A DNA stretch of 64,000 nucleotides from Burkholderiaceae bacterium (lineage in GTDB: Bacteria > Pseudomonadota > Gammaproteobacteria > Burkholderiales > Burkholderiaceae_C). Below, piece after piece: positions 2,659-21,172 of this stretch; position 1 is the stretch's first letter; every line of letters begins with the position of its first letter. Location of the stretch: contig JAYRMR010000013.1 in the NCBI GenBank assembly GCA_041912595.1, positions 1 to 64,000 on the forward strand, given 5' to 3'. The notes beneath the pieces are model-generated. The model had not been told where the DNA came from. It made no database searches and saw only the letters and a list, made by a program, of their open reading frames with translations. The translations under genes were made by a program, and so were the position numbers.

Positions 2659-2677
2659 GATTCGCCTCGCAGTTCTT

Positions 2678-2689: not shown

Positions 2690-2824
2690 CAGAATACCAC
2701 CGCATTACATGAGCCGATGTCACCGCTGCTTGCAATTTCCCACCGCTCGGGGGATGGGCGCATCCACGCGCGACTCCTATCGTGCGCGGGCGCCAATCGG
2801 GCGTACCTTCCACCAACGATCGAT

Positions 2825-4533: not shown

Positions 4534-4560
4534 GGCCCGGACCGGCGCTCAGGCGGTCAG

Positions 4561-4974: not shown

Positions 4975-4984
4975 GCGGTGCTCA

Positions 4985-5356: not shown

Positions 5357-5388
5357 CAGGACTCCCTCTTCATTTTTCAAAAACGAAT

Positions 5389-6096
5389 TCACCGCTCGGC
5401 GCGGGTCTGCATCTCCACGATTGCGAAGCTCTCGATGGGCAGACGACCGCGAAGGTAGTAACGGACACATTCATCGGACGCGATCAGGTACTTGGACTCG
5501 AGCACACTCACGTTCCCGAAGGCATCCACACCCGAGTTGCCGCTGCACATGACACGTCGCAGCACACCGGCCATCAGGGGCACCTTGAGTTCATAGCCGT
5601 AGACAACGCGGATCTTCAGGAGGTTGGCATCCCGCAGACGCTGCTGCGAGGAGGCCCCGGGCTTGTCCAGCCGCCACTCCAGGTTGTCATTCGGGATGTA
5701 GGTCTTGCCGGTCGTGGGGTCCTTGACCCCGAAGTCATCGAAGGACTGGGCCGATGGATTCAGGCGTTCCAGCTTCACCGGATGCAGGACCTGATCGAGC
5801 TCCGTGTCCACCTTGGCCTTGGCCAGGCGCACGCTGTCGTTCGTCTCGAAGTTGTTTTGATAGAAGGGGCTGAGCGAGCGCAGCAGGGCGGTCTTCATGA
5901 CCCCTTCGTCCGCGTTGTGCAGGGAGCCCAGGCGCGCGGCCTGGAAGGTCGCGTGGTTGACCTGCAGCTTCGCCATGTAGATGAAGCCGGCCTGCACCAG
6001 GCCCAGCACGAACACGATGGCCACGGGCAGGACGATCACGAACTCGACCAGACCCAGGCCTCTGGGCGACCTGCCATGACGATGCCTGACGCGCAT
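5389..6096 (-). CDS. TadE/TadG-like pseudopilin (Flp pilus assembly)
   Basis: N-terminus MRVRHRHGRSPRGLGLVEFVIVLPVAIVFVLGLVQ matches the TadE-like motif. GGAGGAGG RBS precedes the ATG at 6096. Divergent from flp. Confidence 0.65.
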   Translation of the reverse strand: MRVRHRHGRSPRGLGLVEFVIVLPVAIVFVLGLVQAGFIYMAKLQVNHATFQAARLGSLHNADEGVMKTALLRSLSPFYQNNFETNDSVRLAKAKVDTELDQVLHPVKLERLNPSAQSFDDFGVKDPTTGKTYIPNDNLEWRLDKPGASSQQRLRDANLLKIRVVYGYELKVPLMAGVLRRVMCSGNSGVDAFGNVSVLESKYLIASDECVRYYLRGRLPIESFAIVEMQTRAER

Positions 6097-6474: not shown

Positions 6475-6771
6475 ATGCTGCAAATGCAACAACGCGCCCT
6501 GAACAAGTCCAAGATCCGCGGTCAGGGCATGACCGAGTACATCATCATCGTGGCGCTGATCGCCATCGCCGCCATCGGCGTCTACAGCCTGTTCGGTGAC
6601 GTGGTGAAGAAGCAGACCGGCGCCATGGCCGCTGGCCTGGCGGGTGACAACGGCAATGCCGTGACCTGGAACGGCAAGGCCAAGGAGAAGACCGAGAACG
6701 AGAAGAAGAAGGTCGAGAACGTGAAGGGCCTGAACGACTTCACGAAGGACAACGACCTGGGTTCGAAGTAA
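6475..6771 (+). CDS. flp: Flp/Fap family type IVc pilin (Flp-1) with extended Lys/Glu-rich C-terminal tail
   Basis: IRGQGMTEYIIIVALIAIAAIGV fits the Flp prepilin motif G/XXXXEY followed by a hydrophobic helix. 98 aa against the typical 50–70. The tail reads KAKEKTENEKKKVENVKGLNDFTKDNDLGSK. Confidence 0.8.
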   Translation: MLQMQQRALNKSKIRGQGMTEYIIIVALIAIAAIGVYSLFGDVVKKQTGAMAAGLAGDNGNAVTWNGKAKEKTENEKKKVENVKGLNDFTKDNDLGSK

Positions 6772-6786
6772 GCACTCTGAGTGCAA

Positions 6787-6835
6787 GGGTGGGGCGCCTG
6801 CGCCTGCACCCTACACTTTGATCCCCACTTTCTTC
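6787..6835 (+). terminator. Putative intrinsic terminator/attenuator downstream of flp
   Basis: GC hairpin GGGTGGGGCGCC-TGCGCC-TGCACCC followed by a T-rich tract (TACACTTTGATCCCCACTTTCTTCT). Sits between flp and the next operon gene. Confidence 0.4.
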
Positions 6836-6845
6836 TACGCACACC

Positions 6846-7694
6846 ATGTCCTCGAGTTCTTCCCGTTTCTTGCTGTCCGCCCTTTGCCTGCTCTCACTGG
6901 CCTCGGCCCATGCGCTGGAGGTGACTCCGCCGCGTGGCTACCAGTTCAGCAAGCCGCCGGAAGTGAAGCAGCACGGGATCTACACGGTCTACATCCGGTG
7001 TGCGTCGAAGTTCTGCGGAAGCATCGCTACTGGCAAGACCGGTGACCTGGAACTGGAGGGCAAGACCTCCCGCTATACGGTCAACGCCATCAGCGACCAG
7101 AACGAGATGGACAGCCGCGCCATCAACAAGGAATACCTGGCGCTGGCCGCGAAAGCGGGTGGTGCACAGGTGGATGAAGGCAATTCGATCGGTCCGAACG
7201 TGTACCGCATCCCTCGTGCCAACGGCAAGGGCGCGGACTGGATCGTGATCGAGCACAACTACGGTCGCCGCTTCGAGATGACCGTCATCGAGGAAGCGGC
7301 CCAGGAACTGACGGCCACGATCACGGCCTCCCAGATGGGCCAGTCGATCGATGCCACCGGCAGCGTCGCGCTCTATATCGAGTTCGACACCGCCAAGGCC
7401 ACGATCAAGCCTGCGGGCGAGGCCACCGTGAAGGAGATCGCCGCGCTGCTCAAGAGCCAGCCGGCGCTGCGCCTCTCGGTGGAAGGCCACACGGACAACG
7501 TCGGCCAGGCCGCCGACAACAAGCGCCTCTCGCAGGCGCGCGCTGAAGCCGTCATGAAGGCCGTGGTCGCCCAGGGCATCGATGCCAAGCGACTCAAGGC
7601 CGTCGGCCAGGGGCAGGAGTACCCCATCGCCGACAACCGGACCGAGGAAGGCCGCGGCAAGAACCGCCGGGTCGAACTCGTCAAGATGAAGTGA
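6846..7694 (+). CDS. Periplasmic OmpA-family protein, paralog 3 (embedded in tad operon)
   Basis: Signal peptide MSSSSSRFLLSALCLLSLASAHA. Same N-domain as paralogs 1 and 2 (ADWLVLKDNFEGYY vs ADWIVIEHNYGRRF). C-terminal OmpA motif VEGHTDNVGQAADNKRLSQARAEAV…NRRVELVK. Confidence 0.85.
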   Translation: MSSSSSRFLLSALCLLSLASAHALEVTPPRGYQFSKPPEVKQHGIYTVYIRCASKFCGSIATGKTGDLELEGKTSRYTVNAISDQNEMDSRAINKEYLALAAKAGGAQVDEGNSIGPNVYRIPRANGKGADWIVIEHNYGRRFEMTVIEEAAQELTATITASQMGQSIDATGSVALYIEFDTAKATIKPAGEATVKEIAALLKSQPALRLSVEGHTDNVGQAADNKRLSQARAEAVMKAVVAQGIDAKRLKAVGQGQEYPIADNRTEEGRGKNRRVELVKMK

Positions 7695-7743
7695 AGCAGG
7701 GGCGGCACGAGCCCGCCCCCTGAACGAGAACGAGGGAGTCGCC

Positions 7744-9270
7744 ATGGTTTGCGAGATGGCCACCGTGCGTGGCCCGGGCAGCGCTTTGCCCAAACACCGC
7801 CGGCCGACCGGCGCCAAGCCCCAGCGGGGCCAGGCCATGATCTGGATGCTGGGCATGCTGGCAGCCAGTGGCGCGGTCATGTTCGCGCTGTTCAACACCT
7901 CGCAGACCACGGTGAGCAAGGAGCGCACCATCAATGCCGCCGATGCCGCGGCATTGGCAGGGGCGACGGCCGAGGCCCGCCTGCTCAACCTGATGGCCTA
8001 CAACAACCGCGCCATCATCGCCAACGAAGCCTTCCTGATCCAGTTGCTCAGCCTGGAGGGCTGGACGCAGTATGTGGGCAAGACCGCGAAGACGTTCGGC
8101 ACGATCCTGCACATCCTGAGCTTGATCCCGCCGATCTCGGCACCCGCCAATGCCGCTGCCACGGCGCTGGACAAGGCAAGCACCGCCGCAGACAAAGCCC
8201 ACGATGCGGTGAGCAGCGGGGCCACGCCCGTCGTCATCACGATGCTCGAGACAGCCAAGAGCGTCGCCAAGTTGTCTCATGGCGCCATCCGTGAAACCGG
8301 CAGCTTCCTGGCTGCCGACGCGGCACGCGCCATCGCCTCCGCCAACCGCACGGACTTCGGCGGACGCCACGACCCGGGCCAGAGCGTTCTGGAGACGCCC
8401 GCGATGATGGGCGTCACGCTGGGCATGAACCTCACGGACTGGCGCAACTTCACCAAGATCTACGAAGGCTCCGAACGCGGCGACGCCAAGCAGGTGCTGC
8501 TGGACTCGCGGGATGCCTTCACCACGAGCCGGCCCGGCCGCTCGTGGCTCAACTTCAAGTTCGATGTCATCCCCCTGGTGCGGCGCGTCGGCCTCGAGAA
8601 GAACGGCGGCTCCCAACTGGTCGGCTTCGACCGCTGGGAGACGCAGGACACCCTGGAGCTGCTGACCTGGACCAAACGGCGCCCGTGGAGCGGCTGGCGA
8701 CTGAATCCCAGCGACGGCCTCCCCCTCGGCTGGGGCCGCGCCACGGCGGATGACACCGAGAACAAGGGCAATGTCTGGTCGCCCTCCCGCCTGGCCCAGC
8801 GTCGGGCGCGCAACGACGGCGACGCGCACGGCGGCTGGTCCGGCGTGCCATCGCTCTACAACGTCGCGGACACCAGCGAGCCGGCCCGCGCTGGCCTGGG
8901 CGTGGACTTCCTCGTGGCCGTCGGACGCCCGCAGGGCAATGACATCACGACTACCTCGCTGAAGATGGGCAGCACGAGCACCAGCGTCCTGGGCGCGACG
9001 GACATGCCGCAGGCTCAGGATGCGGGCCGCCATACGGCATTCGCCAAGGCCCGCGTGAGCTTCGAGCGGCCCCAACGGGGACTTGCCGGTGACACCACCG
9101 CAGCGCCTCTGTGGCGTCGCGACACCGCGAAGGAATATGGCTCGCTCTACAGCCCTTACTGGCAGGCGCGCCTCGCCGACCTGACGGTGGGCGAGAAGAC
9201 GGCCATGCTGGCCGCCGTCGGACTGACGCCGGACTACCTCGTCTACACGCCGGGAGCGCAGTCCAAATGA
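7744..9270 (+). CDS. TadG-like Flp pilus assembly protein
   Basis: N-terminus …KPQRGQAMIWMLGMLAASGAVMFALFNTSQ matches the TadE/G-like N-terminal motif. 508 aa, no obvious vWA MIDAS motif. GAGGGAG RBS. Confidence 0.7.
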   Translation: MVCEMATVRGPGSALPKHRRPTGAKPQRGQAMIWMLGMLAASGAVMFALFNTSQTTVSKERTINAADAAALAGATAEARLLNLMAYNNRAIIANEAFLIQLLSLEGWTQYVGKTAKTFGTILHILSLIPPISAPANAAATALDKASTAADKAHDAVSSGATPVVITMLETAKSVAKLSHGAIRETGSFLAADAARAIASANRTDFGGRHDPGQSVLETPAMMGVTLGMNLTDWRNFTKIYEGSERGDAKQVLLDSRDAFTTSRPGRSWLNFKFDVIPLVRRVGLEKNGGSQLVGFDRWETQDTLELLTWTKRRPWSGWRLNPSDGLPLGWGRATADDTENKGNVWSPSRLAQRRARNDGDAHGGWSGVPSLYNVADTSEPARAGLGVDFLVAVGRPQGNDITTTSLKMGSTSTSVLGATDMPQAQDAGRHTAFAKARVSFERPQRGLAGDTTAAPLWRRDTAKEYGSLYSPYWQARLADLTVGEKTAMLAAVGLTPDYLVYTPGAQSK

Positions 9271-10268
9271 AGGCGTTCAGCCGCGGCACCGCCGCTCCGG
9301 CCGCAAGTCGTGAACTTGACGGCGTGTGCCCCATGAGTCCGCCCCCCCGGCGTAAGCGCTGGCCGTTCCCTGGCAGGTCCTTTGCTGCGGCCGCCCTGAT
9401 GGCCCTGTTGGCCGGCGGCCTGCATGCCGCAGGCCAGAAGGAGGGCCGTGTGCCGGCGGTCCGCGTCGTGACGGCCGGTCACGCGCCCGCGAGCCAGTTG
9501 CGGGATCAGCTCGAGCCCCTGCTCATGCTGTGTCGCAAGCAGCTGAACCTCCCGCCCGAACCCAGCGGCATGCCCAGCGACGCCGCGCTGGCGCGTGTCG
9601 CCAGCATCGAGACCGAGGTGCTGCTCGATGGCCCCCGCTATGCGAAGTACCAGACCACCCGCAATCTCCTGCCGGATGACAAGGACGGCTGCAAGGTGAA
9701 GGTGCTCCGGCAGTTCACGGTGGAGCTCGAGAGCAGTTGCGACCGGCGCTGGTCCGCCACGTCCGGTGGGCCTGGCTTCAAGGCCGCACCCATGAAAAGT
9801 AGCGAGCTCGTCTACACCCAGGACGCTGAGCAAGCCCGATCCTCGCCGTGCCAGGTCCGCGTGGAGCCCACGCCCGATCTGGTCGCCGCCTGGAAGAAGA
9901 CGTCCCGTCAGCCGGCTGGCCTGGGTGCCCAATGCCTGTGGAGCAACGAGCTCGGTCTGCACCTGGGCGGCAGCAAGGCATCGGCCCATCCCGACCCGCT
10001 CAGCGGCAGCTGCTATGCCGCGGACCTGCCGGACTACCCCTTCACCACCTATCAAGGCAACCGGCGCTCCGTGTCCCTGAAGTTCCGCATGGCACGACTG
10101 CCGGGAGACACCTTCCGGCCGCCGGGCATCGTGGCCGGCCTGCTCGACCAGGAACTGAAGGAATTCAGCATGGATGCCGCAATCCCGGAAGGCCGCTTCA
10201 GTCGCGCGCAGGCCGAGGCCTTCCTGAAGCAGCCCGCCATCGTTCCTCTTGCGGAGCCCAGCAAATGA
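9267..10268 (+). CDS. Hypothetical secreted Cys-containing protein (tad operon)
   Basis: ATGA overlap with the tadG stop. Signal-like segment RSFAAAALMALLAGGLHAAG. No recognisable domain. Alternative start at Met 9333. Confidence 0.5.
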   Translation: MKAFSRGTAAPAASRELDGVCPMSPPPRRKRWPFPGRSFAAAALMALLAGGLHAAGQKEGRVPAVRVVTAGHAPASQLRDQLEPLLMLCRKQLNLPPEPSGMPSDAALARVASIETEVLLDGPRYAKYQTTRNLLPDDKDGCKVKVLRQFTVELESSCDRRWSATSGGPGFKAAPMKSSELVYTQDAEQARSSPCQVRVEPTPDLVAAWKKTSRQPAGLGAQCLWSNELGLHLGGSKASAHPDPLSGSCYAADLPDYPFTTYQGNRRSVSLKFRMARLPGDTFRPPGIVAGLLDQELKEFSMDAAIPEGRFSRAQAEAFLKQPAIVPLAEPSK

Positions 10269-11083
10269 AGCACGCCCTGCCTCTCCCGGACGCCTGCACA
10301 CAGCGCACAGCCCCCGCCACGCGTCGTGCGAGGCAGCGTGGCCAGTCCATCTCCGAGTTCCTGGTGTCGCTGATCGCCCTGGTGCCGGTCTTTCTGGCCA
10401 TCACCTACCTGGGCCGCTATGCCGACCTGCACCAGCGGGCCACGCAGGCCAGCCGGTACGCCGCCTTCCAGCGCACCATGCAGCCGAACACCGCCATCCT
10501 GTCCGACGCGGATCTGCAGGACCAGATGCGCGCACGCTTCTTCCTGGCGCCCAAGGCCCTGCACGATGGCCGCATCCAGTCGGACGACTCCGTGGCAGGC
10601 ATCACCGATGCGAAGAAGTCCCCGGCCATCTGGAGCGACCTGAGCGGCAAGGCGCTGCTGGCCAAGCCGGGCGACGTCACCATGACCTGGGACAGCAAGG
10701 CCATGGGCAACAAATCGGTGGTCAGCGGTCTGGACAAGGCCTTCGGCCTCGTGGGCAAGGACTACACGCCGGGGCACCGCGCCATGGTTGAACTGACGCT
10801 GCTGAACCGTCTGGACCAGACGGAAGCCACGCCCAAGGCGCTGAAACTCGCGGCGGCGACGACCGCCCCCGGGGAGTCCCTCGTCGCCAAAGGCGGCGAC
10901 GGGACCGCCGATGCCGCCCGCCGGCTGGTCCCGGCGACCCTCATCCCGTCCGTTGTCGAATCAGTGCTGGGCTTTGTGATCTCGCTGTTCGAGCAGGATT
11001 CGCCGGACATCGGCTGCATCAAGGCAGACACCGTCCCCACGAATCGACTCAAAGGCGCCACACAGCAAGACGTGTGCCGCTGA
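10265..11083 (+). CDS. TadE-like pseudopilin
   Basis: ATGA-coupled start. RGQSISEFLVSLIALVPVFLAITYLG is the TadE-like domain. Confidence 0.7.
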   Translation: MKHALPLPDACTQRTAPATRRARQRGQSISEFLVSLIALVPVFLAITYLGRYADLHQRATQASRYAAFQRTMQPNTAILSDADLQDQMRARFFLAPKALHDGRIQSDDSVAGITDAKKSPAIWSDLSGKALLAKPGDVTMTWDSKAMGNKSVVSGLDKAFGLVGKDYTPGHRAMVELTLLNRLDQTEATPKALKLAAATTAPGESLVAKGGDGTADAARRLVPATLIPSVVESVLGFVISLFEQDSPDIGCIKADTVPTNRLKGATQQDVCR

Positions 11084-11781
11084 TCATGGCCCCCTATCTG
11101 TCTCCTCGGCTGCTGCCGCTCCTGCTGGGCATCGTCTGGGTGTCCGCGCAGGCCACCGACTGGCGATCGCTGGCGCTGCCGGATCGCACCCAGGGCGAAT
11201 GGGTGCTGGGCGAAGCCCGCGTCAACGGCGTCCCGATGCAGACCCAGCGGCTGACGTCACGGCTGACGGTCGAGCAACTGCTCGCGCATTTCGAGGACCA
11301 GTGGAAGCGCTGGGGTTCCGTGCGCCGCGCCACCACCGCGGGCTGGCAGACGCTCAGCGTCAACACGGGTCCGGTGCAACTGACCCTGCAGGCCAAGGCG
11401 GCCCAGGACGGTAGCGAGGGCATCCTGACCCAGGCGGCCTGGCCCGAGCGGCAGCGGGACTTCCTTCCCCCGGAACTCCCTGACCTGCCCCGCACCGACG
11501 CCCAGCAGGTCACCGAGTCCCGCGACGGCCCGCGCCGCAGCCGCCTCGTGCATCTGCTATCCCAGGACAACCTGGAACTCAACCGCCAGCGCTGGCAGGC
11601 CTATGCCCGCCGCAAGGGCTGGGCGCTGACCACCGAGAAGCTGCTCAAGCAGTCCGGGCAGCAGCACTGGCTGGCGAGCTTCACCAGCGGCGGCGCCCTG
11701 ACGCTGGACCTCGTCCTGTCCCAGTCCGACGCCGCTGCCAAAACCAGCATCACCGCCAACTTCCTGGACACCGTGCCATGA
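11074..11781 (+). CDS. Hypothetical secreted protein (tad operon)
   Basis: Signal peptide MPLIMAPYLSPRLLPLLLGIVWVSAQA. 235 aa with no recognisable domain. Overlaps its neighbours. Confidence 0.5.
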   Translation: MPLIMAPYLSPRLLPLLLGIVWVSAQATDWRSLALPDRTQGEWVLGEARVNGVPMQTQRLTSRLTVEQLLAHFEDQWKRWGSVRRATTAGWQTLSVNTGPVQLTLQAKAAQDGSEGILTQAAWPERQRDFLPPELPDLPRTDAQQVTESRDGPRRSRLVHLLSQDNLELNRQRWQAYARRKGWALTTEKLLKQSGQQHWLASFTSGGALTLDLVLSQSDAAAKTSITANFLDTVP

Positions 11782-11960
11782 CACCGATCCACCGCCGCCG
11801 CCAGCGCGGCCAGGCCACCCTCGAATACGCCATCGCCGCCAGCGCGCTGGTCATGGCGCTGTTCGTCGTCGAGTTCAGCGGCAAGACCGCCGCACAGTAC
11901 CTCGCAGAAGCCGTCCGCGTCTTCTACAAGAACCTCAGCTATTTCCTCTCCCTGCCCTGA
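11778..11960 (+). CDS. Second Flp-family pilin/minor pilin (Flp-2), 60 aa
   Basis: RRQRGQATLEYAIAASALVMALFVV carries a G/XXXXEY prepilin motif. ATGA-coupled to the upstream gene and sits immediately before cpaB. Confidence 0.55.
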   Translation: MTPIHRRRQRGQATLEYAIAASALVMALFVVEFSGKTAAQYLAEAVRVFYKNLSYFLSLP

Positions 11961-11962
11961 CC

Positions 11963-12847
11963 ATGGCCCTCTCCCTGAAAAAGATCAACAGCAACTGGCT
12001 GCTCCTCGGCGCCGCGATTCTCCTGGGCGGCGGCGCAGCCTATCTCGGGGGTGCCGCGCTGAAGCAGCGGATGCACGAGCTGGACGAGCAGGCCAATGCG
12101 GGCAAGGACATGGTCTCCGTCGTCGTCGCGCGGCGTGACATGCAGCGCGGCGAACCCGTCGAGCCCGACTCCTTCGCCGTGCGCAAGGTGCCCAGCGAGT
12201 ACCTCAACGCCGACGCGGTGAAGCCCGGCGACTTCGAGCCCTACGTGACGCAGCGCCTGATCGTCGGCCTCAAGCGCGGCGACGTCCTGCTGCCCGTGCA
12301 CACCGAGGGCAACGGGAACAAGGTGTTCTCGTCCACCCTGGGCGTCGGCAAGCGCGCCCTGACCTTCGAGGTGGACACCGTCAACTCCGTCTCCGGGATG
12401 CTGCGCCCGGGCGACCGCATCGACCTGCTCTACACCGCCAAGGGCCTGGACTCGGTCGATGTCACCCAGCCCCTGCTCTCCAACCTGGAGATCCTGGCCA
12501 CCGACCAGAACCAGACCCGCCGTGACGAGAACGGCAAGGAACGCAACTTCTCGACCATCACCATGGAGCTGTCGCCCCAGGACGCCCAGCGCGTGATCGT
12601 CGCCAAGCAGGCTGGCCGCCTGACCGCCCTGCTCCGCCACCCGGACGACAAGGCCGCCAACCCGAGCGGCGCCATGGACCCCACCGTGCTGCTGAGCGGT
12701 CGCGTGCGTCGCGCCAACGGCGAGCGCCAGGGCATCGAGTACCTGGTCGGCGGAGGCGGCGGCCCGGCTGACATCAAGACCCAGCTCAGCCGCCTGGCGC
12801 TGAGCGGCGAGCTCGGCGCTCCCGCCGCGGCCCCTGCCAAGCCCTGA
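11963..12847 (+). CDS. cpaB: Flp pilus assembly protein CpaB/RcpC
   Basis: 294 aa. N-terminal TM helix, then SAF-like β domains (VVVARRDMQRGEPV…, RPGDRIDLLYT). Position matches the canonical tad order. Confidence 0.85.
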   Translation: MALSLKKINSNWLLLGAAILLGGGAAYLGGAALKQRMHELDEQANAGKDMVSVVVARRDMQRGEPVEPDSFAVRKVPSEYLNADAVKPGDFEPYVTQRLIVGLKRGDVLLPVHTEGNGNKVFSSTLGVGKRALTFEVDTVNSVSGMLRPGDRIDLLYTAKGLDSVDVTQPLLSNLEILATDQNQTRRDENGKERNFSTITMELSPQDAQRVIVAKQAGRLTALLRHPDDKAANPSGAMDPTVLLSGRVRRANGERQGIEYLVGGGGGPADIKTQLSRLALSGELGAPAAAPAKP

Positions 12848-12855
12848 TCGCCGCC

Positions 12856-14376
12856 ATGTCCATCGCATTCAATCTCACGTTCCCCATGTCCTCGACTCCT
12901 ACCCTCGGTCTGGCGCGTCCGCTCGTCCTGCTCGCCTGTCTCACGCTCTGCGCCACGGCCCATGCCGACCCGGCCGGCGACACCCCCGCGGCCGGCCCCG
13001 GCGCGGGCCGCGGCGCGGTGAACCCCGCGGCCGTGCAGTCCACGCTGATCGAGACGGCCAAGCCGGCCCGCGGTGCGGCCAAGCCCGCCCCGGGCCCGGT
13101 CGCCATCGAGTCCGGCCCCACCCGGACCCTGGCCGTGGGCGACGTCTCCACGATCAACCTGCCCGGCGTCGTGCGCATCGCCATCGGCAATGGCGGCCTG
13201 CTGAAGGCCACCGTGGTCGATGACCGCGAGATCGTGCTGATCGCCGAACAGTCCGGCCGCACGACCATGCATGTCTGGCTGAAGAACGGTCGGCAGCTGA
13301 GCTACGAGATCGAGGTGCTGGCCTCGCGCCCCAACCGCGTGCTGGACGAACTCCAGGGCCTGTTGAAGGAGACGCCGGGCCTCACTGCCCGCGTGGTGGG
13401 CGAGCGCGTCGTGATCGAGGGCCGCTACCAGGACAGCACCGTCGCCCAGCGCATCAAGCGCCTGGCGAGCAACTTCCCGCAGATCCTCAACCTCGTGCCT
13501 GACCGCCCGGTGGACGCCGACCCCCTGCAGCTCGAACGCATGGTGCAGATCGACCTGCGCGTGATCGAGGTGAAGAAGCGCGCGCTGGACCAGCTGGGCA
13601 TCAAGTGGGCCAGCGGTGCCGCAGGCCCCACCTTCGCCACCAACGCCCTCGTGTACAGCAACACCCCGTGGCGTCCGGAGACGACCAACGGCTACCCGCC
13701 CGTCAACACCAGCAACCCGATCTACAGCTACCTCGGCATGGCGACGCAGATCACCAGTGCCCTGCGCTTCCTCGAGACCCGCGGCGAAGCCTGGACCCTG
13801 GCCGAACCGCGCCTGAGCTGCCGCAGCGGCGGCGAGGCCAACTTCCTGGCCGGTGGCGAGATTCCCATCCCCGTCGGCCAGGGCAATGGCGCGATCGGCG
13901 TGATCTACAAGCAGTACGGCGTGCGCATCGAGTTCAAGCCCCAGGCCGATGGCCACGGCAACATCGACTCCGGTCTGATGGTCGAGGTGAGCGAGCCCGA
14001 CGGCCGCAACTCCAACGCCGGCTTCATCGCCTTCACGACGAACCGCACCGACACGCAGGTCGCCATGAAGGAAGGGGAACCGCTGGTGATCTCGGGCCTG
14101 CTGCGCCAGCGCACCGAGCGCAGCACCGACGCCGTGCCGGGCCTGGGCCGCATCCCCATCATCAGCAATCTGTTCAAGTCGCGCGACCACACGAACGAGC
14201 AGACCGAGCTCATCGTGATCGCCACGCCGCGCATCATCACGCCCGACTCCGCCCTCACCCGCCTGAGCGTCGACAAGGCCGCCAGCCTGGCGGAGCAGGT
14301 CAACGAACGCGTGACGAGCAAGCTCAAGCCCGAGTCCGGCAGCAACGGCGCCGAGTCGGGCCAGGAGGCACGCTGA
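12856..14376 (+). CDS. cpaC: Flp pilus secretin CpaC/RcpA
   Basis: 506 aa. BON-like N-domain, then secretin C-domain (…ISGLLRQRTERSTDAVPGLGRIPIISNLFKSRDHTNEQTELIVIATPRII). Confidence 0.9.
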   Translation: MSIAFNLTFPMSSTPTLGLARPLVLLACLTLCATAHADPAGDTPAAGPGAGRGAVNPAAVQSTLIETAKPARGAAKPAPGPVAIESGPTRTLAVGDVSTINLPGVVRIAIGNGGLLKATVVDDREIVLIAEQSGRTTMHVWLKNGRQLSYEIEVLASRPNRVLDELQGLLKETPGLTARVVGERVVIEGRYQDSTVAQRIKRLASNFPQILNLVPDRPVDADPLQLERMVQIDLRVIEVKKRALDQLGIKWASGAAGPTFATNALVYSNTPWRPETTNGYPPVNTSNPIYSYLGMATQITSALRFLETRGEAWTLAEPRLSCRSGGEANFLAGGEIPIPVGQGNGAIGVIYKQYGVRIEFKPQADGHGNIDSGLMVEVSEPDGRNSNAGFIAFTTNRTDTQVAMKEGEPLVISGLLRQRTERSTDAVPGLGRIPIISNLFKSRDHTNEQTELIVIATPRIITPDSALTRLSVDKAASLAEQVNERVTSKLKPESGSNGAESGQEAR

Positions 14377-16133
14377 TGCTGCACATCCAGATCGAGGGCC
14401 GTGACGGCCTGCAGCAGCTGGCCAGCACCCGCTGCATCGTCGGCAAGGACAGCGAGTGCGACCTCGTGCTGTCCGGCTGGAAGGTCAGCCGGCGGCATGC
14501 CGAGCTGTTCGTGTCGAACGAGCGCGTCTATGTGCGCGACCTGGACTCCAGCTTCGGCACGTGGCTGGGCGAGCAGCGCGTGGGAGACACGATGCCCGTG
14601 CCCACGGGCGCCACGCTGCGCATCGGCGGCCACAGCATCCGCGCGCACTGGGCCCGCCAGGACGCCGAGGCCACGGCCCCCGCGCCCGCGCCCGCGGGCT
14701 CCACGCCTCAGGCCGGCGCCGCGGCGGGCATCGAGCTCCGCCCGCCGAACGCGGCCACCCCGCCTGCAGCCGCACCGGCCGCGGCGTCGCCCGTGATGGC
14801 CCCCGCCACGGCCCCGGTGGCCCCGACCGAGGCCACCGATGTCAGCTTCAAGTACCGCCGCCTGCTGCATGAGCGCCTGCTCGAGTCCTTCGACCTGCGC
14901 CGCACCGACACGCACCGCATGGCGGACGACGAGCTGCAGGAGCTCACCGAGAAGCTGATCTCCGAGCAGATCGACAAGCTGGGCAAGGAGCTGCCCGCCG
15001 GCATCGACAAGCGCGCGCTGCTCGAGCAGGTCCGTGACGAGGCCATCGGCCTGGGCCCGCTGGAGCCGCTGCTGGCGGATCCGTCCATCACCGAAATCAT
15101 GGTGAACAAGGCGGACGAGGTCTTCGTCGAGCAGGGCGGCCAGCTGACGCGCTGGCCCGTGGCCTTCACCAGCGACCGCGCGGTGCAGGGCATCATCGAG
15201 CGCATCGTCGCGCCCATCGGCCGGCGCATCGACGAAAGCTCGCCGATGGTGGACGCCCGCCTGAAGGACGGCTCGCGCGTGAACGCCGTGATCCCGCCGC
15301 TGGCGCTGAAGGGCCCGTCCATCACGATCCGGAAGTTCTCCAAGCGCAAGCTCAACTCCGACGACCTGCTGCGCTTCGGCTCCGCGAGCCCAGCCATGAT
15401 CGAGTTCCTGAAGGTCTGCGTGGAGCACCACCGCAACATGCTGATCTCCGGCGGTACGGGTTCGGGCAAGACGACCTTGCTGAACATCATGTCGAACTTC
15501 ATCCCCGAGGGCGACCGCATCGTCACCATCGAGGATGCGGCCGAGCTGCAGCTGCACCACCCGAACGTGGTCTCGCTGGAAGCCCGCCCGGCCAATATCG
15601 AGGGCAAGGGCCTGGTCGCCATCCGCGACCTCGTGAAGAACTCGCTGCGGATGCGCCCGGACCGCATCGTGGTCGGTGAATGCCGGGGCGGCGAGGCCCT
15701 GGACATGCTGCAGGCCATGAACACGGGCCACGACGGCTCGCTCACCACCGCCCACGCCAACAGCCCGCGCGACATGCTCGCCCGTCTGGAGGTGATGGTG
15801 CTGATGGCCGGCATGGACCTGCCCGTGACGGCCATCCGCGAGCAGATCGCCTCCGCGGTGCAGATCGTCGTGCAGCAGACCCGCTTCGCCTGCGGCACCC
15901 GCAAGGTCACCAGCATCACCGAGGTCACCGGCGTCGAAAGCGGCAAGATCCAGCTGCAGGAGATCTTCGGCTTCGTGCAGACCGGCCGGGACGCCCGCGG
16001 CAAGACGCAGGGCTACTTCACCGGGCGGGGCTTCGTTCCCGAGTTCTATGAGGAGCTGGCGGCCATCGGCATTCCGCTGCGCATGGACATCTTCGACGAG
16101 ACCCCGCCGGAGCAGCGGGGAGCCCGCGCATGA
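14376..16133 (+). CDS. cpaF: CpaF/TadA pilus ATPase with N-terminal FHA domain and Pro/Ala-rich linker
   Basis: Start overlaps the cpaC stop by 1 nt. Residues 1–100 form an FHA domain (GRDGLQ…CDLVL…VSRRHAEL…YVRDLDSSFGTWLGEQRV). The linker is APAPAPAGSTPQAGAAAG…APTEATD. The ATPase has Walker A GGTGSGKTT, Walker B/Asp box and His box. Confidence 0.9.
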   Translation: MLHIQIEGRDGLQQLASTRCIVGKDSECDLVLSGWKVSRRHAELFVSNERVYVRDLDSSFGTWLGEQRVGDTMPVPTGATLRIGGHSIRAHWARQDAEATAPAPAPAGSTPQAGAAAGIELRPPNAATPPAAAPAAASPVMAPATAPVAPTEATDVSFKYRRLLHERLLESFDLRRTDTHRMADDELQELTEKLISEQIDKLGKELPAGIDKRALLEQVRDEAIGLGPLEPLLADPSITEIMVNKADEVFVEQGGQLTRWPVAFTSDRAVQGIIERIVAPIGRRIDESSPMVDARLKDGSRVNAVIPPLALKGPSITIRKFSKRKLNSDDLLRFGSASPAMIEFLKVCVEHHRNMLISGGTGSGKTTLLNIMSNFIPEGDRIVTIEDAAELQLHHPNVVSLEARPANIEGKGLVAIRDLVKNSLRMRPDRIVVGECRGGEALDMLQAMNTGHDGSLTTAHANSPRDMLARLEVMVLMAGMDLPVTAIREQIASAVQIVVQQTRFACGTRKVTSITEVTGVESGKIQLQEIFGFVQTGRDARGKTQGYFTGRGFVPEFYEELAAIGIPLRMDIFDETPPEQRGARA

Positions 16134-16972
16134 CGTCCCAGCTGCTCCTGGTCGGGCTGATGCTCTTCGGCGCGACGGCCGTGCTGCTCCTGCTGGCGCG
16201 GCGCGCGCTGCTGAGCTGGCAGGCGCGCTTCACCGAGACGGCCAAGGTGTCGCTGGAGGACATGTTCGTCTTCATCGACCCGGGCTCGCTCTTCAAGCTG
16301 AACCTGGCGCTGTTCATCCTGGTGCCGCTGCTGCTGTGGGTCTTCACGGGCTCGCCCGTGCTGGCCGTGCTGGGCGGCCTGGGCGGCGCCATCCTGCCGC
16401 GCGCCAGCTGGATCATCCTGCGCCGCCGGCGCATGGCGCTGCTGGTCGAGCAGCTGCCGGACGGCCTCACCATGATGGCCGGCGCCATGCGCGCCGGTGC
16501 CAGCCTGCAGATCGCGCTGGACCTCGTGGTCAAGGAGTCGCCGGCGCCGCTGTCCCAGGAGTTCTCGGTCCTGCTGCGCGAGCAGCGCCTGGGCCTGGCC
16601 CTGGAGGACTCGCTGCGCGGCCTCTCGCAGCGCCTCAAGCAGGAGGACATCGACCTCTTCGTCTCGGCGCTCACCATCGCCAAGGAAGTCGGCGGCAATC
16701 TGTCCGAGATCCTGGAGCGGCTGTCCTCCACGCTGCGCGCCAAGGCCGTCATGGAGGGCAAGATCAAGGCCCTCACCTCGCAGGGCAAGCTGCAGGGCAT
16801 CGTCGTGGGCATGCTGCCGGTCCTGCTGGCCGGCGTGCTCTATGCCATGGACCCGCGGGCCATGACGCCCTTGTTCACCACCATCTACGGCTGGGGCACC
16901 ATGAGCGTGATCTTCATCCTGATCACCATGGGCGCCTTCTTCATCAAGAAGATCGTCACGATCGACGTCTGA
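16130..16972 (+). CDS. tadB: Flp pilus assembly membrane protein TadB
   Basis: 280 aa polytopic protein with a T2SS-F domain (…LSQRLKQEDIDLFVSALTIAKEVGGNLSEILERLS…). Confidence 0.85.
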   Translation: MTSQLLLVGLMLFGATAVLLLLARRALLSWQARFTETAKVSLEDMFVFIDPGSLFKLNLALFILVPLLLWVFTGSPVLAVLGGLGGAILPRASWIILRRRRMALLVEQLPDGLTMMAGAMRAGASLQIALDLVVKESPAPLSQEFSVLLREQRLGLALEDSLRGLSQRLKQEDIDLFVSALTIAKEVGGNLSEILERLSSTLRAKAVMEGKIKALTSQGKLQGIVVGMLPVLLAGVLYAMDPRAMTPLFTTIYGWGTMSVIFILITMGAFFIKKIVTIDV

Positions 16973-16975
16973 ACC

Positions 16976-17842
16976 ATGTCCATGGTCTATCTCTTCGCCG
17001 CCTTCTCGGGCCTGGCCACGCTGCTGCTGATCTATGCGGTGTATCGCCTCTACACCGAGCTGGGCAGCGCCAACACGCAGTACCGCGACAAGCCGCCGCG
17101 CGGCTTCCAGTACGTCTGGCCGCTGATCAACATCCTGGCCAACAGCTTCGGCTTCCTCATCAGCGAGGGGCGGGTGCAGGCCTGCCTGCTGAGGCTGCGC
17201 CGCGCCGGCCAGGACTACGCCCTGACCCCGCACCAGTTCTACGCCGGGAAGTGGGTCGCCGCACTCGGCTTTGCCGGCGTCGGCGTCGTCCTCGCGGGCA
17301 AGGGCGGCGGCACCATGGGCGCGCTGCTCGGCGCGCTACTGGGCTTCCACTACCCCGACATCTGGCTGCGCGACCACACCAAGATCCGCAACCTCGCGCT
17401 GCTCAAGGCCCTGCCCTTCTTCCTGGACATCGTCACGCTGTCCGTCGAGTCCGGCCTCAACCTCACCGGCGCCCTGCAGAAGGCCGTGGACCGCTGCCCG
17501 CCCGGGCCGCTGATGGTGGAGGTCAACCGCGTGCTGCGCGAGATCCGCGGCGGCAAGCCCCGGATCGAGGCCCTGCGCGCGTTGGCCGACCGCCTGGACT
17601 ACGCGCCCATCTCCAGCCTCGTCAGTGCGCTGATCCAGGGCGAGCTCATGGGCTCGAGCCTCGGCCCCATCCTGCGCGCACAGAGCGACCAGCGCCGCAC
17701 CGAGCGCTTCCTGCGGGCCGAGAAGCTCGCCATGGAAGCCCCCGTGAAGATGCTGGGCCCGCTGATCATGTTCATCTTTCCCTGCACCTTCATCGTCCTG
17801 GGCTTCCCCATCGTCATGAAGTTCATGCAGTCGGGGATCTGA
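16976..17842 (+). CDS. tadC: Flp pilus assembly membrane protein TadC
   Basis: 288 aa, second T2SS-F-like platform protein (ALPFFLDIVTLSVESGLNLTGALQK…). Confidence 0.85.
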   Translation: MSMVYLFAAFSGLATLLLIYAVYRLYTELGSANTQYRDKPPRGFQYVWPLINILANSFGFLISEGRVQACLLRLRRAGQDYALTPHQFYAGKWVAALGFAGVGVVLAGKGGGTMGALLGALLGFHYPDIWLRDHTKIRNLALLKALPFFLDIVTLSVESGLNLTGALQKAVDRCPPGPLMVEVNRVLREIRGGKPRIEALRALADRLDYAPISSLVSALIQGELMGSSLGPILRAQSDQRRTERFLRAEKLAMEAPVKMLGPLIMFIFPCTFIVLGFPIVMKFMQSGI

Positions 17843-18199
17843 ATGGGCTGGCCGCAAGCCCGCCTGCATCTGCAGGGCATCGCCACCCATGTGCGGATCG
17901 GCCTCGCGCTGCGCTGGTGGGAGCGCGCCCGCGGCCTGCTGTTCCACGGGCAGCTGCAGGACGCCCCCGCCGGGCTGTGGATCGCGCCGTGCAACAGCGT
18001 GCACATGCTCGGCATGCGCCAGGCGCTGGACATCGTCTACCTCGACCGCGACGGCGTGATCCTCAAGTGCGTGCCGACGCTGCGCCCCTGGCGCCTGAGC
18101 GCCTGCCCGGGCGCGCATGTGGCGCTCGAGCTGCGCACCGGGCTGATCGCGGAGCTCGGCCTCAAGCCGGGCCTGCGGCTCCAGGCGCGCGGCGGCTAG
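17843..18199 (+). CDS. DUF192 domain protein (tad-associated)
   Basis: 118 aa (…WIAPCNSVHMLGMRQALDIVYLDRDGVI…) immediately after tadC. Confidence 0.65.
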   Translation: MGWPQARLHLQGIATHVRIGLALRWWERARGLLFHGQLQDAPAGLWIAPCNSVHMLGMRQALDIVYLDRDGVILKCVPTLRPWRLSACPGAHVALELRTGLIAELGLKPGLRLQARGG

Positions 18200-18214: not shown

Positions 18215-19216
18215 TCACAGCAGGCCGCGCGTCCGGGCCATCAGCCGCGTCAGGCCCAGCATCGCGTCGATGCTGGGCGTCGGCTGGCCGATGTGCTGGC
18301 CGATCTCCCGGACGACCGTCACGAGCGCATCGAGCTCGATCTTCCGGCCCGCCTCCACGTCCTGCAGCATCGAGGTCTTGAAGGCGCCCAGCTTGCGCGT
18401 CACCTCGTGGCGCTGTTCGGGCGTCTGTCCGACGGGGCAGCCGATGACGTCGCCGATGGCCGAGGCCTCGCGCATCACGGCGCTCACGAAGCCGCGCACC
18501 AGTTCGTCATCGAGGATCCGATCGCAGGTGGCCCCCGTCAGCGCCGAGATGGGGTTCATCGTCATATTGCCCCAGAGCTTGTACCAGATGTCCTTCTGGA
18601 TGCGCGGGGACACGGTGGCACTGAAGCCGGCCCGCTGGAACAACGCGGCCCACTCGCCGAGGTAGGCCGGCTCGCCACCCGCGGGGTCGCCGAGGATCAG
18701 GCCCATGCCCATCACATGCTTGACGAGGCCGGGCTCCGGCGTGGCGCAGCTGGCATGCACCACCGAGCCGATCACGCGGTCCGCCGGGATCAGGCCGGCC
18801 ACCTGGCCTCCCGGGTCCACCGACTGCAGCGCCAGCCCGCGGCAGGGGCCGTCGAGCTGCTGGAAGAACCACCAGGGCACGCCGTTCATGGCCACGAGCA
18901 CGCGGGTCTGCTGCCCCAGCAGGCGCTGCACCAGCGGGGCGACGTCCGGCAGCGCCGGGCCCTTGACGGCCAGCACCACGAGATCCTGCGGGCCGAGGTC
19001 CTCGGGCCGGTCCGAGGCCGTCAGCGGCACCGTCACGCGGGTGGGGGTGCCGTCGATCACCGTGTCCATGCGCAGGCCGTGCGTCCGCAGTGCCTCTAGC
19101 GTCGCGCCCCGGGCCACGGCGCTGAGCCGGACCTCCTCGCCCAGCCGATGCCCCAGATGCGCCGCCACCCAACCGCCGATGGCGCCCATGCCCACGATGC
19201 AGATCTTCTTCATCAC
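18215..19216 (-). CDS. panE: 2-dehydropantoate 2-reductase (ketopantoate reductase family)
   Basis: MMKKICIVGMGAIGGWVAAHL has a GxGxxG Rossmann motif. ApbA N- and C-domains present, 333 aa. Confidence 0.8.
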   Translation of the reverse strand: MMKKICIVGMGAIGGWVAAHLGHRLGEEVRLSAVARGATLEALRTHGLRMDTVIDGTPTRVTVPLTASDRPEDLGPQDLVVLAVKGPALPDVAPLVQRLLGQQTRVLVAMNGVPWWFFQQLDGPCRGLALQSVDPGGQVAGLIPADRVIGSVVHASCATPEPGLVKHVMGMGLILGDPAGGEPAYLGEWAALFQRAGFSATVSPRIQKDIWYKLWGNMTMNPISALTGATCDRILDDELVRGFVSAVMREASAIGDVIGCPVGQTPEQRHEVTRKLGAFKTSMLQDVEAGRKIELDALVTVVREIGQHIGQPTPSIDAMLGLTRLMARTRGLL

Positions 19217-19310: not shown

Positions 19311-20435
19311 TTGGCAGCACGCGCGGCGCTGCTATCGTGGCCGCCCATGCCTCACGACGCTCCTCCCGACGTTCCCGTCCTTCCCCGCCGCTTCTGGTGG
19401 ATCTACGCCGGCCTGCTGGCCGGGGTGGCGCTCTTCTTCGCCCTGGCCGAGCTGCAGCACTACCTGCGCAATGGCGGCCAGCATCCGTGGGAGCCCTTCC
19501 TGTGGGAGTTCAGCTCGGTGATGGTCGTGGCGGGGCTGCTGCCGCCTCTCTTTCGCTGGCACCGGCGCAGCGTCGGGCGCGGCGCGGGCGTGCTGCTCGC
19601 GCGCCATGCCGCCGGCTATGCCGCCTACACGGTGCTGCATGTGCTGGGCATGTTCGGCCTGCGCTTCGCCGTGTATGCCCTGACCGACGTCCGCTACGAG
19701 CCGGGCAATGCCTGGCAGGTGCTGGGCTACGAGGCGGCCAAGGACCTGGTCTTCTACGTGACCAACGTCCTCCTGTGCCAGGCCTGGCTGATCCATCTGA
19801 AGGGCCAGCAGTCGGCGCTGGAGATGGCCCGCATGCGCACCGAGCTGGCCCAGGCGCAGCTCGCGCGCCTGGCCGAGCAGGTGCAGCCGCACTTCCTCTT
19901 CAACAGCCTGAACCTGATCGCCTCGGTGATGTACGAGGACGTCGCCCGCGCCGACCGGCTGCTGTGCCAGCTCTCGGAGCTGCTGCGCGCCTCGCTGTCG
20001 GCGCAGCAGCGCGGCTGGCAGACGCTCGGCGAGGAGATGGCGCTGATCGAGCCCTATCTCGCGCTGATGCAGGCGCGCTTCGGCGAGCGGCTGCAGGTGC
20101 GGGTCGAGATGCCGCCGGAGGCCGCGCGGTGGCCGCTCCCGGCGCTGTTGCTGCTGAACCCGGTGGAGAACGCCGTCAAGCATGACGTGGCGCTCAGCCG
20201 GGGCGCGGTCGAGGTCTCGGTGCGGGCCCAACCGCTGGCGGACGGGCTGCAGGTGGAGATCCGCAACAGCGGCGTGAGCGCCGAGCAGATCGAGCGCGCC
20301 GGCGGGCTCGGCCTGAGCAACCTGCGCGAGCGACTGCGCGTGGCCTATGGCGACGCGGCCACGCTGTGGATCGGTCCGGACCAGGGCGGCACGCTGCTGC
20401 GCCTGCAGCTGCCGGCGCGAGGAGACGCCGCATGA
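19311..20435 (+). CDS. LytS/AlgZ-type sensor histidine kinase
   Basis: Four or five N-terminal TM segments, then the His_kinase (PF06580) motif QVQPHFLFNSLNLIASVMYED and a reduced ATP-binding region (LLLNPVENAVKHD…). Coupled to the downstream LytTR regulator. Confidence 0.8.
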   Translation: MAARAALLSWPPMPHDAPPDVPVLPRRFWWIYAGLLAGVALFFALAELQHYLRNGGQHPWEPFLWEFSSVMVVAGLLPPLFRWHRRSVGRGAGVLLARHAAGYAAYTVLHVLGMFGLRFAVYALTDVRYEPGNAWQVLGYEAAKDLVFYVTNVLLCQAWLIHLKGQQSALEMARMRTELAQAQLARLAEQVQPHFLFNSLNLIASVMYEDVARADRLLCQLSELLRASLSAQQRGWQTLGEEMALIEPYLALMQARFGERLQVRVEMPPEAARWPLPALLLLNPVENAVKHDVALSRGAVEVSVRAQPLADGLQVEIRNSGVSAEQIERAGGLGLSNLRERLRVAYGDAATLWIGPDQGGTLLRLQLPARGDAA

Positions 20436-21172
20436 GACTGCTGATCGTGGACGACGAAGCCCCGGCGCGCGCGCGCCTGCGCCGCCTGCTGGCCGATCAG
20501 CCCGGCGTGCAGTGGGTCGGCGAGGCCGCGCACGCCGACGAGGCGCTGGAGCAGCTGCAGCGCCACCCCGACATCCAGGCCCTGATCCTCGACATCCAGA
20601 TGCCCGGCCAGAGCGGCCTGGACCTGGCACTGCAGCTGCCTCCGCAGCTGCCGGTGATCTTCTGCACGGCCTTCGACCAGCACGCCATCCAGGCCTTCGA
20701 TCTGCATGCCGTGGACTACCTGCTCAAGCCTTGCAGCCCGGAGCGTCTGGCGACGGCCCTGCAGCGTCTTCAGGGGCGGCTGCTGCCAGCGCAGCCTGCG
20801 CACGGGGCCGCGCGCGGCGGCCTCATCGCGGCGCTGCAGCAGCTGCAGCCGGCCTCCGGCCACTGGCTGGTGCAGCGCCAGGGTCGGCTGCACAAGCTGC
20901 CGCTGGCCGAGCTGCAGTGGGTCTCGGCGGCCGACAACTACATCGAGCTGCACGCTCCGCCGCAAAGCTACCTGGAGCGGCGCACGCTGGGCGCCTTCCT
21001 GGAGCATCCGGCGGTGGCCGGCCAGTTCCTGCGCATCCACCGCAGCCATGCGGTCAACCCCGCCCACATCGACAGCATCGAGGCCCTGCCCCACGGCGAG
21101 GCGCTGCTGACGCTGCGCGGGGGGCAGCAGCTGCGGGTCTCGCGCAACTACCGCGATCAGCTGCGCGGCTGA
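20432..21172 (+). CDS. LytTR-family response regulator (AlgR-like)
   Basis: MRLLIVDDEAPAR…ILDIQMPGQSGLDL is a REC domain. The C-terminal LytTR DNA-binding domain reads LPLAELQWVSAADNYIELHAP…FLRIHRSHAVN. ATGA overlap with the kinase. Confidence 0.85.
   Translation: MRLLIVDDEAPARARLRRLLADQPGVQWVGEAAHADEALEQLQRHPDIQALILDIQMPGQSGLDLALQLPPQLPVIFCTAFDQHAIQAFDLHAVDYLLKPCSPERLATALQRLQGRLLPAQPAHGAARGGLIAALQQLQPASGHWLVQRQGRLHKLPLAELQWVSAADNYIELHAPPQSYLERRTLGAFLEHPAVAGQFLRIHRSHAVNPAHIDSIEALPHGEALLTLRGGQQLRVSRNYRDQLRG

Follow-up and report, generated by a model that had tools for sequence, protein, structure and literature searches.

An N-terminal FHA domain on the CpaF/TadA ATPase of a Burkholderiaceae tad locus and its possible role in the place of TadZ

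The FHA-CpaF gene and its operon

The stretch of DNA studied here, hereafter the window, comprises the first 64,000 nucleotides of contig JAYRMR010000013.1 (GCA_041912595.1) from a Burkholderiaceae bacterium. On its forward strand it carries a gene (14376..16133) encoding the predicted motor ATPase of a Flp/Tad pilus, a PilT/VirB11-like enzyme of the CpaF/TadA type preceded by an FHA domain. The gene belongs to the cpaB-cpaC-[FHA-cpaF]-tadB-tadC operon of a tad/flp locus (2486-18199). Its class III architecture is already known; the mutual exclusion of FHA and TadZ among related loci and the degenerate phosphothreonine pocket, described below, go beyond the literature that could be searched.

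All genes of the operon are read on the forward strand. Upstream of the ATPase gene lie cpaB/rcpC (11963..12847), recognized by the Pfam models RcpC and SAF and by TIGR03177 (147 bits), and cpaC/rcpA (12856..14376), coding for a secretin of 506 residues (Pfam Secretin and T2SS-T3SS_pil_N). The latter directly abuts the ATPase gene, with no intervening tadZ/cpaE. Downstream, the platform proteins TadB (16130..16972) and TadC (16976..17842) both match Pfam T2SSF, and the tadB start overlaps the stop codon of the ATPase gene.

An internal start codon or an artefactual fusion can be ruled out. The ATG at 14376 shares the sequence TGATG (14374-14378) with the TGA stop codon of cpaC, a Shine-Dalgarno sequence AGGAGG read from the DNA (14363..14368, +) precedes it by 7 nucleotides, and the N-termini are conserved, the same aligned start Met being found in 49/50 homologues. 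The start at an internal Met downstream of the FHA region, which an earlier prediction made from this DNA (hereafter the original prediction) had raised as an objection to itself, is thereby excluded. From the ATG the frame runs unbroken over 585 codons and a stop, in the class III order of FHA domain, intrinsically disordered region (IDR), three-helix bundle (3HB), N-terminal domain (NTD) and C-terminal ATPase domain (CAD), i.e. FHA-IDR-3HB-NTD-CAD. A protein identical to this product is already present in the public collection (P0001; NCBI and Logan), and a member of the 90%-identity cluster of the FHA-CpaF is annotated 'ATPase, T2SS/T4P/T4SS family' in Pelomonas sp. APW6 / Roseateles subflavus. 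The source is accordingly placed near Roseateles/Pelomonas within the Burkholderiales.

The FHA domain covers residues 1-95 (14376..14660, +), as delimited by Pfam, an AlphaFold2 model, Foldseek and residue mapping. The Pfam search of the N-terminal region that had been proposed as a check returned the FHA model (PF00498) at residues 21-84 with 60.3 bits (E 2.4e-16), well above the cut-off of 20.7; the model Yop-YscD_cpl also exceeded its cut-off on this domain (44.9 vs 33.2 bits). The AlphaFold2 model of residues 1-100 has a predicted local distance difference test (pLDDT) value of 86.7 and is all-beta, with nine strands of at least three residues (DSSP). Its best solved fold match is the FHA domain of Mycobacterium tuberculosis FhaA (3po8, template modelling score or TM of 0.80, Foldseek), and TM values of 0.76-0.82 were obtained to FhaA, GarA, EmbR and Chlamydia CT664. 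In a search of 1.84 billion representatives, residues 1-98 matched 12,247 library proteins at E<=0.001. These matches are generic, mostly to multi-FHA proteins, and confirm only the family; the FHA-only search was dropped as a gauge of how frequent the fusion is.

A disordered Pro/Ala-rich linker follows at residues 96-153 (14661..14834, +). It is 58 residues long, close to the 55 or so first estimated, with 62% Pro+Ala, five Thr and two Ser, and its pLDDT in the full-length model is below 40. Among 50 homologues the linker measures 31-141 residues (median 55), with little conservation of either length or sequence. The three-helix bundle (residues 154-234; 14835..15077, +; helices 155-171, 184-205 and 212-224 in the model) corresponds to the domain NTD1 of Caulobacter CpaF (naming per PMC11300603). 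The N-terminal domain of the ATPase core (about residues 235-335; 15078..15380, +) was delimited by sequence match, model and fold search, and the C-terminal ATPase domain (15381..16130, +) by its Walker A (GGTGSGKT, residues 359-366), Asp box (382), Walker B (425) and His box (450), all invariant across the 50 homologues.

Pfam T2SSE (PF00437) matched residues 225-511 with 222 bits (cut-off 24.9, E 1.1e-65). Among solved structures, the sequence is closest to Caulobacter CpaF (9e24, 386.6 bits); other solved ATPases score lower, i.e. archaeal GspE (143 bits), VirB11 (128) and PilT/PilB (below 40). CpaF structures 8rjf and 9e24 also came on top of the fold search. The NCBIfam model TIGR03819, for a conjugation-associated TadA subfamily, scored 349 bits, below its own cut-off of 373, and was not used for naming. 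Pfam, models and motifs together bear out, far beyond what chance would allow, the architecture first read from the DNA, an FHA domain joined by a linker to a complete CpaF ATPase. No contact between FHA domain and ATPase was deduced from the full-length AlphaFold2 model, whose pLDDT is 66.7 and predicted TM score (pTM) 0.49.

Class III CpaF and the Kil system

In a cryo-electron microscopy study of CpaF published in 2025, 292 CpaF orthologues were sorted into three classes (PMC12019362). Class III, made of an FHA domain, an IDR and the core, was described as 'mostly found in betaproteobacteria' and exemplified by Achromobacter xylosoxidans E3HIW0 (PMC12019362). The window ATPase has the same domain order, disordered linker and betaproteobacterial host as this class, with FHA at residues 1-95, linker at 96-153, helices at 155-224 and then the ATPase core. 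It is an ordinary class III CpaF for Burkholderiales and adds no new architecture. FHA and T2SSE were both found in 118 of the 120 best-matching 90%-identity clusters, the FHA domain being full-length in all 118. In view of these clusters and of the published class (PMC12019362), the statement that a direct FHA-CpaF fusion is not canonical in a proteobacterial Flp locus was wrong.

The same fusion is found in the prey-killing Kil system of Myxococcus xanthus, for which a single ATPase is described (PMC8460266). This hexameric ATPase, KilF, is 'itself fused to an N-terminal FHA domain' (PMC8460266). The original prediction had FHA modules accompanying the Kil machine; they do accompany it, and KilF is in addition a direct fusion. 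In other respects the two systems differ. Kil loci encode several extra FHA proteins, which were also seen in the two KilF-like loci of our sample (L018, L020), whereas the window locus has one FHA domain, on the ATPase. Kil as described lacks TadG, is split into two clusters and has a short secretin without N0 domain (PMC8460266), in contrast to the TadG-like gene, the single contiguous locus and the 506-residue secretin with a pilus N-terminal domain of the window. The KilF-type FHA domain keeps its Arg/Ser/Asn residues and the window FHA domain does not. Apart from the FHA-fused ATPase, none of the marks of a Kil system (accessory FHA proteins, no TadG, short secretin) was therefore found at the window locus.

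FHA and TadZ across related loci

The neighbourhoods of 80 CpaF genes from many phyla, 10 kb on each side, were compared. These are the best-scoring among the first 600 pattern hits, a similarity-ranked sample and not a census, which leaves out canonical proteobacterial class I/II loci and the source organism's own record. The FHA status of each CpaF was called with hidden Markov models built in this analysis. The TadZ profile was made from open reading frames (ORFs) adjoining non-FHA CpaFs and confirmed with Pfam (Response_reg with AAA_31/CbiA/ParA; CbiA/ParA with T2SSE for the fused form).

An N-terminal FHA domain was found on CpaF in 35/80 loci and was absent from 45/80. The hosts of the FHA loci include Hydrogenophaga, Piscinibacter, Thauera, Polaromonas, Acidithiobacillus, Oleiphilus and Chromatiales, as well as Myxococcota, Lentisphaerota, Kiritimatiellia and Verrucomicrobiota. 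TadZ was found in 42 of the 45 non-FHA loci, as a separate upstream gene in 30 and fused to CpaF in 12; of the three others, one starts at a contig edge, one gave a weak fused match and one is a genuine negative. Among the 35 FHA loci and the window, neither a separate nor a fused TadZ was found in any. No match to the TadZ ATPase domain was obtained in the FHA loci within the 10 kb examined, even with filters off and at E<10, and none of these loci contains the deviant Walker A motif KGGxGK[ST]. A search for P-loops in general, aimed at a divergent TadZ, gave only sporadic, unrelated matches, and this candidate was set aside.

Within the window itself, some 50 ORFs distributed over the 64 kb were scanned with Pfam, and all ORFs of at least 60 residues were scanned for motifs. 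Neither these scans nor the TadZ profile revealed a ParA/MinD-like protein of the TadZ/CpaE type. The sole match to the TadZ profile is a LytTR response regulator (20366-21172, +), in its receiver domain only; this gene follows a LytS-type histidine kinase gene (19311-20435, +) beyond the panE gene that borders the tad locus.

The position of TadZ is also informative. Of the 29 testable FHA loci, 28 have cpaC or cpaB immediately before the CpaF gene. In the same place 25 non-FHA loci have tadZ, and 10 loci with a TadZ-CpaF fusion have cpaC. This synteny puts the FHA domain in the slot held, in related loci, by the tadZ gene or the fused TadZ domain. When the ATPase domains were placed in a neighbour-joining tree, the FHA-CpaFs formed one group, separate from the sequences linked to TadZ. 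This group includes the KilF-like proteins of Citreicoccus and Archangium (L018, L020), which are adjoined by extra FHA proteins as in Kil. The suggestion that an FHA-mediated contact may substitute for the missing TadZ has thus gained comparative support (TadZ in 0/35 FHA against 42/45 non-FHA loci, and the same slot), and on these sequence comparisons the substitution seems plausible. The presence of FHA on CpaF and the absence of TadZ were not linked in any literature that could be searched, and the class III study is silent on TadZ/CpaE (PMC12019362).

The fusion of TadZ to CpaF has a described representative. In Bdellovibrio bacteriovorus, a TadZ-TadA fusion (TadZA) binds the polar hub RomR through its TadZ region and linker (bioRxiv 10.64898/2026.07.08.737194). 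Like the window FHA domain, its N-terminal accessory module sits on a flexible linker in the same syntenic position; unlike it, the module is a ParA/MinD-like ATPase, non-homologous to FHA, with a known partner. In our sample, TadZ-CpaF fusion ORFs of about 700-810 residues occur in Bdellovibrionota, Omnitrophota, WOR-3 and others (L023, L025, L028, L036, L041, L047, L049, L055, L056, L057, L061, L074), and TadZA appears to be more widespread than in B. bacteriovorus alone. Two of these loci, from Bdellovibrionales (L056, 2-3333; L074, 65-3405), also encode stand-alone FHA proteins about 6-8 kb upstream of the TadZ-CpaF gene, so that FHA modules accompany TadZ-bearing Tad systems as separate genes as well.

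The phosphothreonine pocket

In canonical FHA domains such as those of Rad53 and of the FhaA type, the signature Arg and Asn residues contact the phosphopeptide. The corresponding signature of the window domain reads G23-K24, G34-W35, S38-R39-R40-H41 and S58-S59-F60-G61-T62. In a profile alignment to the FhaA domain, the canonical G-R falls on G23-K24 and the canonical S-T-N-G-T on S58-S59-F60-G61-T62, so that the Arg is replaced by Lys24 and the Asn by Phe60. S-R-R-H-A (residues 38-42) is the sole canonical motif of the three. The original prediction of a textbook FHA domain was right as to the fold and the S-R-H-A motif; the G-R and N-G motifs that it listed are absent. Both replacements are rare among FHA domains in general: in a baseline of 464 domains from 150 general representatives, the first position is Arg in 86% (Lys in 1.5%) and the last Asn in 75% (Phe in 2%), with Ser in 93% and His in 98% at the two positions that the window protein keeps (S38, H41). 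By its contact residues (Arg, Ser, His and Asn), the domain departs from the phosphothreonine-binding type at two positions.

The loss is not peculiar to the window protein. Among 36 aligned FHA-CpaF domains (window protein included), 21, from beta- and gammaproteobacteria and among them the window protein, have G-W at positions 34-35. The full Arg/Ser/Asn set is found in 0/21 of this Trp35 subfamily, in which position 24 is Lys in 13, Arg in 6 and Ser in 2, position 38 is Ala in 9, Gly in 8, Ser in 3 and Gln in 1, and position 60 is Phe in 6, Gly in 6, Ala in 4, Ser in 2 and Val, Ile and Asn in 1 each. The 15/36 domains without Trp35 come from myxobacteria, other deltaproteobacteria and the PVC group, and 10 of these 15 retain the full set. 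On these alignments the beta/gammaproteobacterial subfamily has lost the residues that contact phosphothreonine and gained a conserved Trp35. Binding of phosphothreonine peptides is assumed for the FHA domain in the class III study (PMC12019362), in contrast to the degenerate contact residues of the window protein, and in view of their loss in the proteobacterial subfamily this assumption should be tested.

Two members of the Trp35 type lie on metagenome-assembled contigs labelled Spirochaetaceae (L005) and Streptomycetaceae (L013), the latter with a secretin gene directly upstream of the FHA-CpaF gene. Their occurrence suggests mis-binning or horizontal transfer.

The loss of the canonical contacts in the subfamily might be read as decay, the FHA domain having worked in a Kil-like ancestor and being carried along in beta- and gammaproteobacteria as a largely functionless appendage. 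We regard this as very improbable. The domain remains full-length in every FHA-bearing cluster, 118 of the 120 closest, and eleven of its positions (G23, G34, W35, H41, E43, R54, D55, L56, G61, T62 and G84) are invariant in 50 homologues. Since the newly fixed Trp is one of them, this pattern points to purifying selection on a changed function, and the domain is under constraint, altered and not decaying.

Kinases, phosphatases and partner genes

Gating of pilus extension by Ser/Thr kinase signalling was the other function first proposed for the FHA domain. A Hanks-type kinase would phosphorylate a Thr residue on the platform, on an accessory protein or on the linker, and binding of the FHA domain would switch extension. 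The Fha1/PpkA pair of type VI secretion is a model for such switching between kinase and FHA domain. The window domain does fold as a true FHA domain, with the canonical stretch S38-R39-R40-H41 and a basic residue (Lys) at position 24, and the linker with its five Thr and two Ser could offer targets; the complete Arg/Ser/Asn set is moreover kept by myxobacterial and PVC-group FHA-CpaFs, and a signalling cascade was proposed by the Kil authors for their own system (PMC8460266).

Against this stand first the residues themselves, K24 and F60, and the replacement of Ser38, usually by Ala or Gly, in the Trp35 subfamily, no member of which has the full set. The linker, too, is poorly conserved. Nor did the gene neighbourhoods provide the enzymes. 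No Pfam match to Pkinase or PP2C was obtained among the scanned ORFs of the window, and the kinase-motif scan of all its ORFs of at least 60 residues gave no match. Across the sample, a Hanks-like kinase lies within 10 kb in just 3/35 FHA-CpaF loci and none was found in the other 32/35. A conserved link to PP2C was also rejected: matches to 'DG[MVLHI][GSA]G' are scattered, several lie on frames that are probably spurious, and no match is conserved from one locus to another. Kinase gating is weakened by these observations; it is rather unlikely for the window protein, doubtful, and less likely than a phospho-independent docking module replacing TadZ.

Partner genes were searched by all-against-all clustering of the loci, which revealed no gene for a cytoplasmic partner that is confined to FHA-type loci. 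The families specific to these loci are pilins, TadE/TadG-like proteins, a secreted protein of 231 residues and antisense-frame artefacts. The FHA domain might also fold back onto its own hexamer or linker and so adjust how nucleotides gain access or how extension is balanced against retraction, irrespective of the absence of TadZ; this would elaborate on a role proposed for the disordered N-terminal region of Caulobacter CpaF. The missing locus-specific partner would agree with such self-regulation, as would the structural matches, the best of which include FHA domains of the GarA/OdhI type. GarA and OdhI are regulated by binding of the FHA domain to the protein's own tail. N-terminal regions are known to influence CpaF: truncation of the disordered N-terminus of the Caulobacter protein alters both extension and retraction (PMC12019362), retraction is reduced when NTD0 is lost, and the nucleotide pockets are within reach of N-terminal extensions (PMC11300603). 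An intramolecular regulator would however leave unexplained the strict absence of TadZ and the replacement at its position, and in the full-length model, whose linker is disordered, FHA domain and ATPase make no contact that is confidently predicted. Such self-regulation is accordingly judged improbable.

A possible docking module in the role of TadZ

In Caulobacter, six CpaE dimers were fitted as a ring around CpaF, contacting its base, and CpaE/TadZ was called 'ubiquitous' in Tad systems (PMC13170226). In FHA-CpaF, each hexamer would carry six FHA domains on flexible leashes, which may form a built-in docking or scaffolding module. This module would recruit the ATPase to, or hold it at, the TadB/TadC platform of the inner membrane or a landmark protein, and would so perform the role that the CpaE/TadZ ring has in Caulobacter. 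In the beta/gammaproteobacterial subfamily the contact would probably be independent of phosphothreonine and made through a hydrophobic apical surface, with Trp35 and Phe60, in place of a phosphate pocket. The binding of RomR by Bdellovibrio TadZA provides a precedent for recruitment of a Tad ATPase through an N-terminal module and its linker. A docking or scaffolding role of the leashed FHA domains in the place of TadZ, phosphothreonine-independent in the beta/gamma subfamily, is judged probable, if only just.

FHA folds without canonical phosphothreonine residues exist in other secretion machines and can be likened to the window domain, i.e. the cytoplasmic domain of SctD/YscD in type III secretion systems and EssC in type VII secretion systems. 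The FHA-like domains of YscD and EssC make phospho-independent structural contacts under the inner membrane. They differ from the window domain in being carried by membrane-ring or coupling proteins and not by a PilT/VirB11-like motor, and no shared partner is implied by the likeness.

Several points weigh against the docking role. It is derived from comparison, and no candidate partner of the FHA domain was found. The exclusivity of FHA and TadZ may go back to a single ancestral event in one lineage; it is an association and not proof of a functional replacement. The sample holds the best-scoring 80 of the first 600 pattern hits, with 10 kb on each side, and the neighbour-joining tree is rough and carries no support values. 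The rest of the genome may contain kinases or a second tad locus, several of which are found in many Burkholderiales, and a tadZ gene outside the region searched might work in trans. As to the pocket, R39/R40 and H41 are kept in the window protein and its close relatives, as is S38 (41/50 of the closest homologues, of which only 1/50 has Asn60). Lys24 could still touch the phosphate, and residual phosphopeptide binding would then be possible.

In a wider view, FHA-CpaFs would form a large TadZ-less branch of Tad systems, uniting Kil, the PVC group and the beta- and gammaproteobacteria, in which the FHA domain took over the role of CpaE/TadZ and the phosphothreonine pocket became, in the proteobacterial subfamily, a phospho-independent hydrophobic surface (Trp35/Phe60). 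This generalization is put forward tentatively, at somewhat less than even chances. The comparative result is more useful than the gene itself, the TadZ-less FHA lineage being a natural experiment on the docking and positioning of the Tad motor, in contrast to the in situ study in which CpaE/TadZ is taken as a ubiquitous ring component (PMC13170226). It is also a warning that an FHA domain need not mean kinase signalling. The apparent replacement of TadZ by FHA together with a degenerate phosphothreonine pocket is unreported in the literature that could be searched, and it is testable.

Other genes of the window

The composition of the locus departs from the canonical flp-tadV-rcpCAB-tadZABCDEFG, since neither TadZ nor TadV was found in it. 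Two Flp-like prepilins are encoded, neither of which matched a Pfam model. The first (6475..6771, +) is of the Flp type; its 98 residues include the cleavage motif G|MTEYIIIV and a long tail rich in Lys and Glu, and within the 80-locus sample its family occurs only in FHA-type proteobacterial loci. The second (11778..11960, +; 60 residues, G|QATLEY), read from the sequence, lies directly 5' of cpaB. An A24 prepilin peptidase (TadV/CpaA) was not found in the locus: the motif G[GA]GD[VLM]K is absent and the scanned ORFs gave no Peptidase_A24 match. The same motif is missing from every beta/gamma-type FHA-CpaF locus (L002-L016, L019, L024, L033, L035, L038) and present in 12 non-FHA loci and two PVC-type FHA loci (L022, L073). 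The peptidase for the two prepilins may be encoded elsewhere.

Between the Flp pilin gene and the TadG-like gene lies a gene for an OmpA-family protein (PF00691; 6846-7694, +), and two further OmpA-family paralogs (PF00691; 2486-3667 and 3664-4533, +) are found in the upstream part of the locus. Homologues of the OmpA paralogs occur in 4/35 FHA-type loci and in no non-FHA locus. The TadG-like protein (7744..9270, +) has 508 residues and a weak match to Pfam Tad, with homologues in 16/35 FHA loci vs 0/45 non-FHA loci. It is followed, at 9267-11781, by genes for two unknown proteins and a TadE-like pseudopilin of 272 residues (10265..11083, +; Pfam TadE), whose homologues are found in 14/35 FHA and 0/45 non-FHA loci. 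Another TadE-like pseudopilin is encoded on the opposite strand (5389..6096, -; Pfam TadE, 43 bits).

The operon ends with a DUF192 gene (17843..18199, +; Pfam DUF192). Homologues of DUF192 are present in 13/36 FHA-type and 19/45 non-FHA CpaF loci, and the gene looks like a conserved, uncharacterised Tad-associated gene. The right border of the tad locus is formed by panE (18215-19216, -).

In two loci of Myxococcota and deltaproteobacteria (L026, 15225-17948; L034, 15439-16611), a second, divergent CpaF-like ATPase without FHA domain is encoded about 5 kb downstream of the FHA-CpaF gene. Finally, the window encodes large proteins of the diguanylate cyclase type, namely a GAF-PAS(x4)-GGDEF protein (31325-33877, -) and a Reg_prop/Y_Y_Y sensor with a GGDEF domain (52391-56308, -), which are possible cyclic di-GMP inputs.

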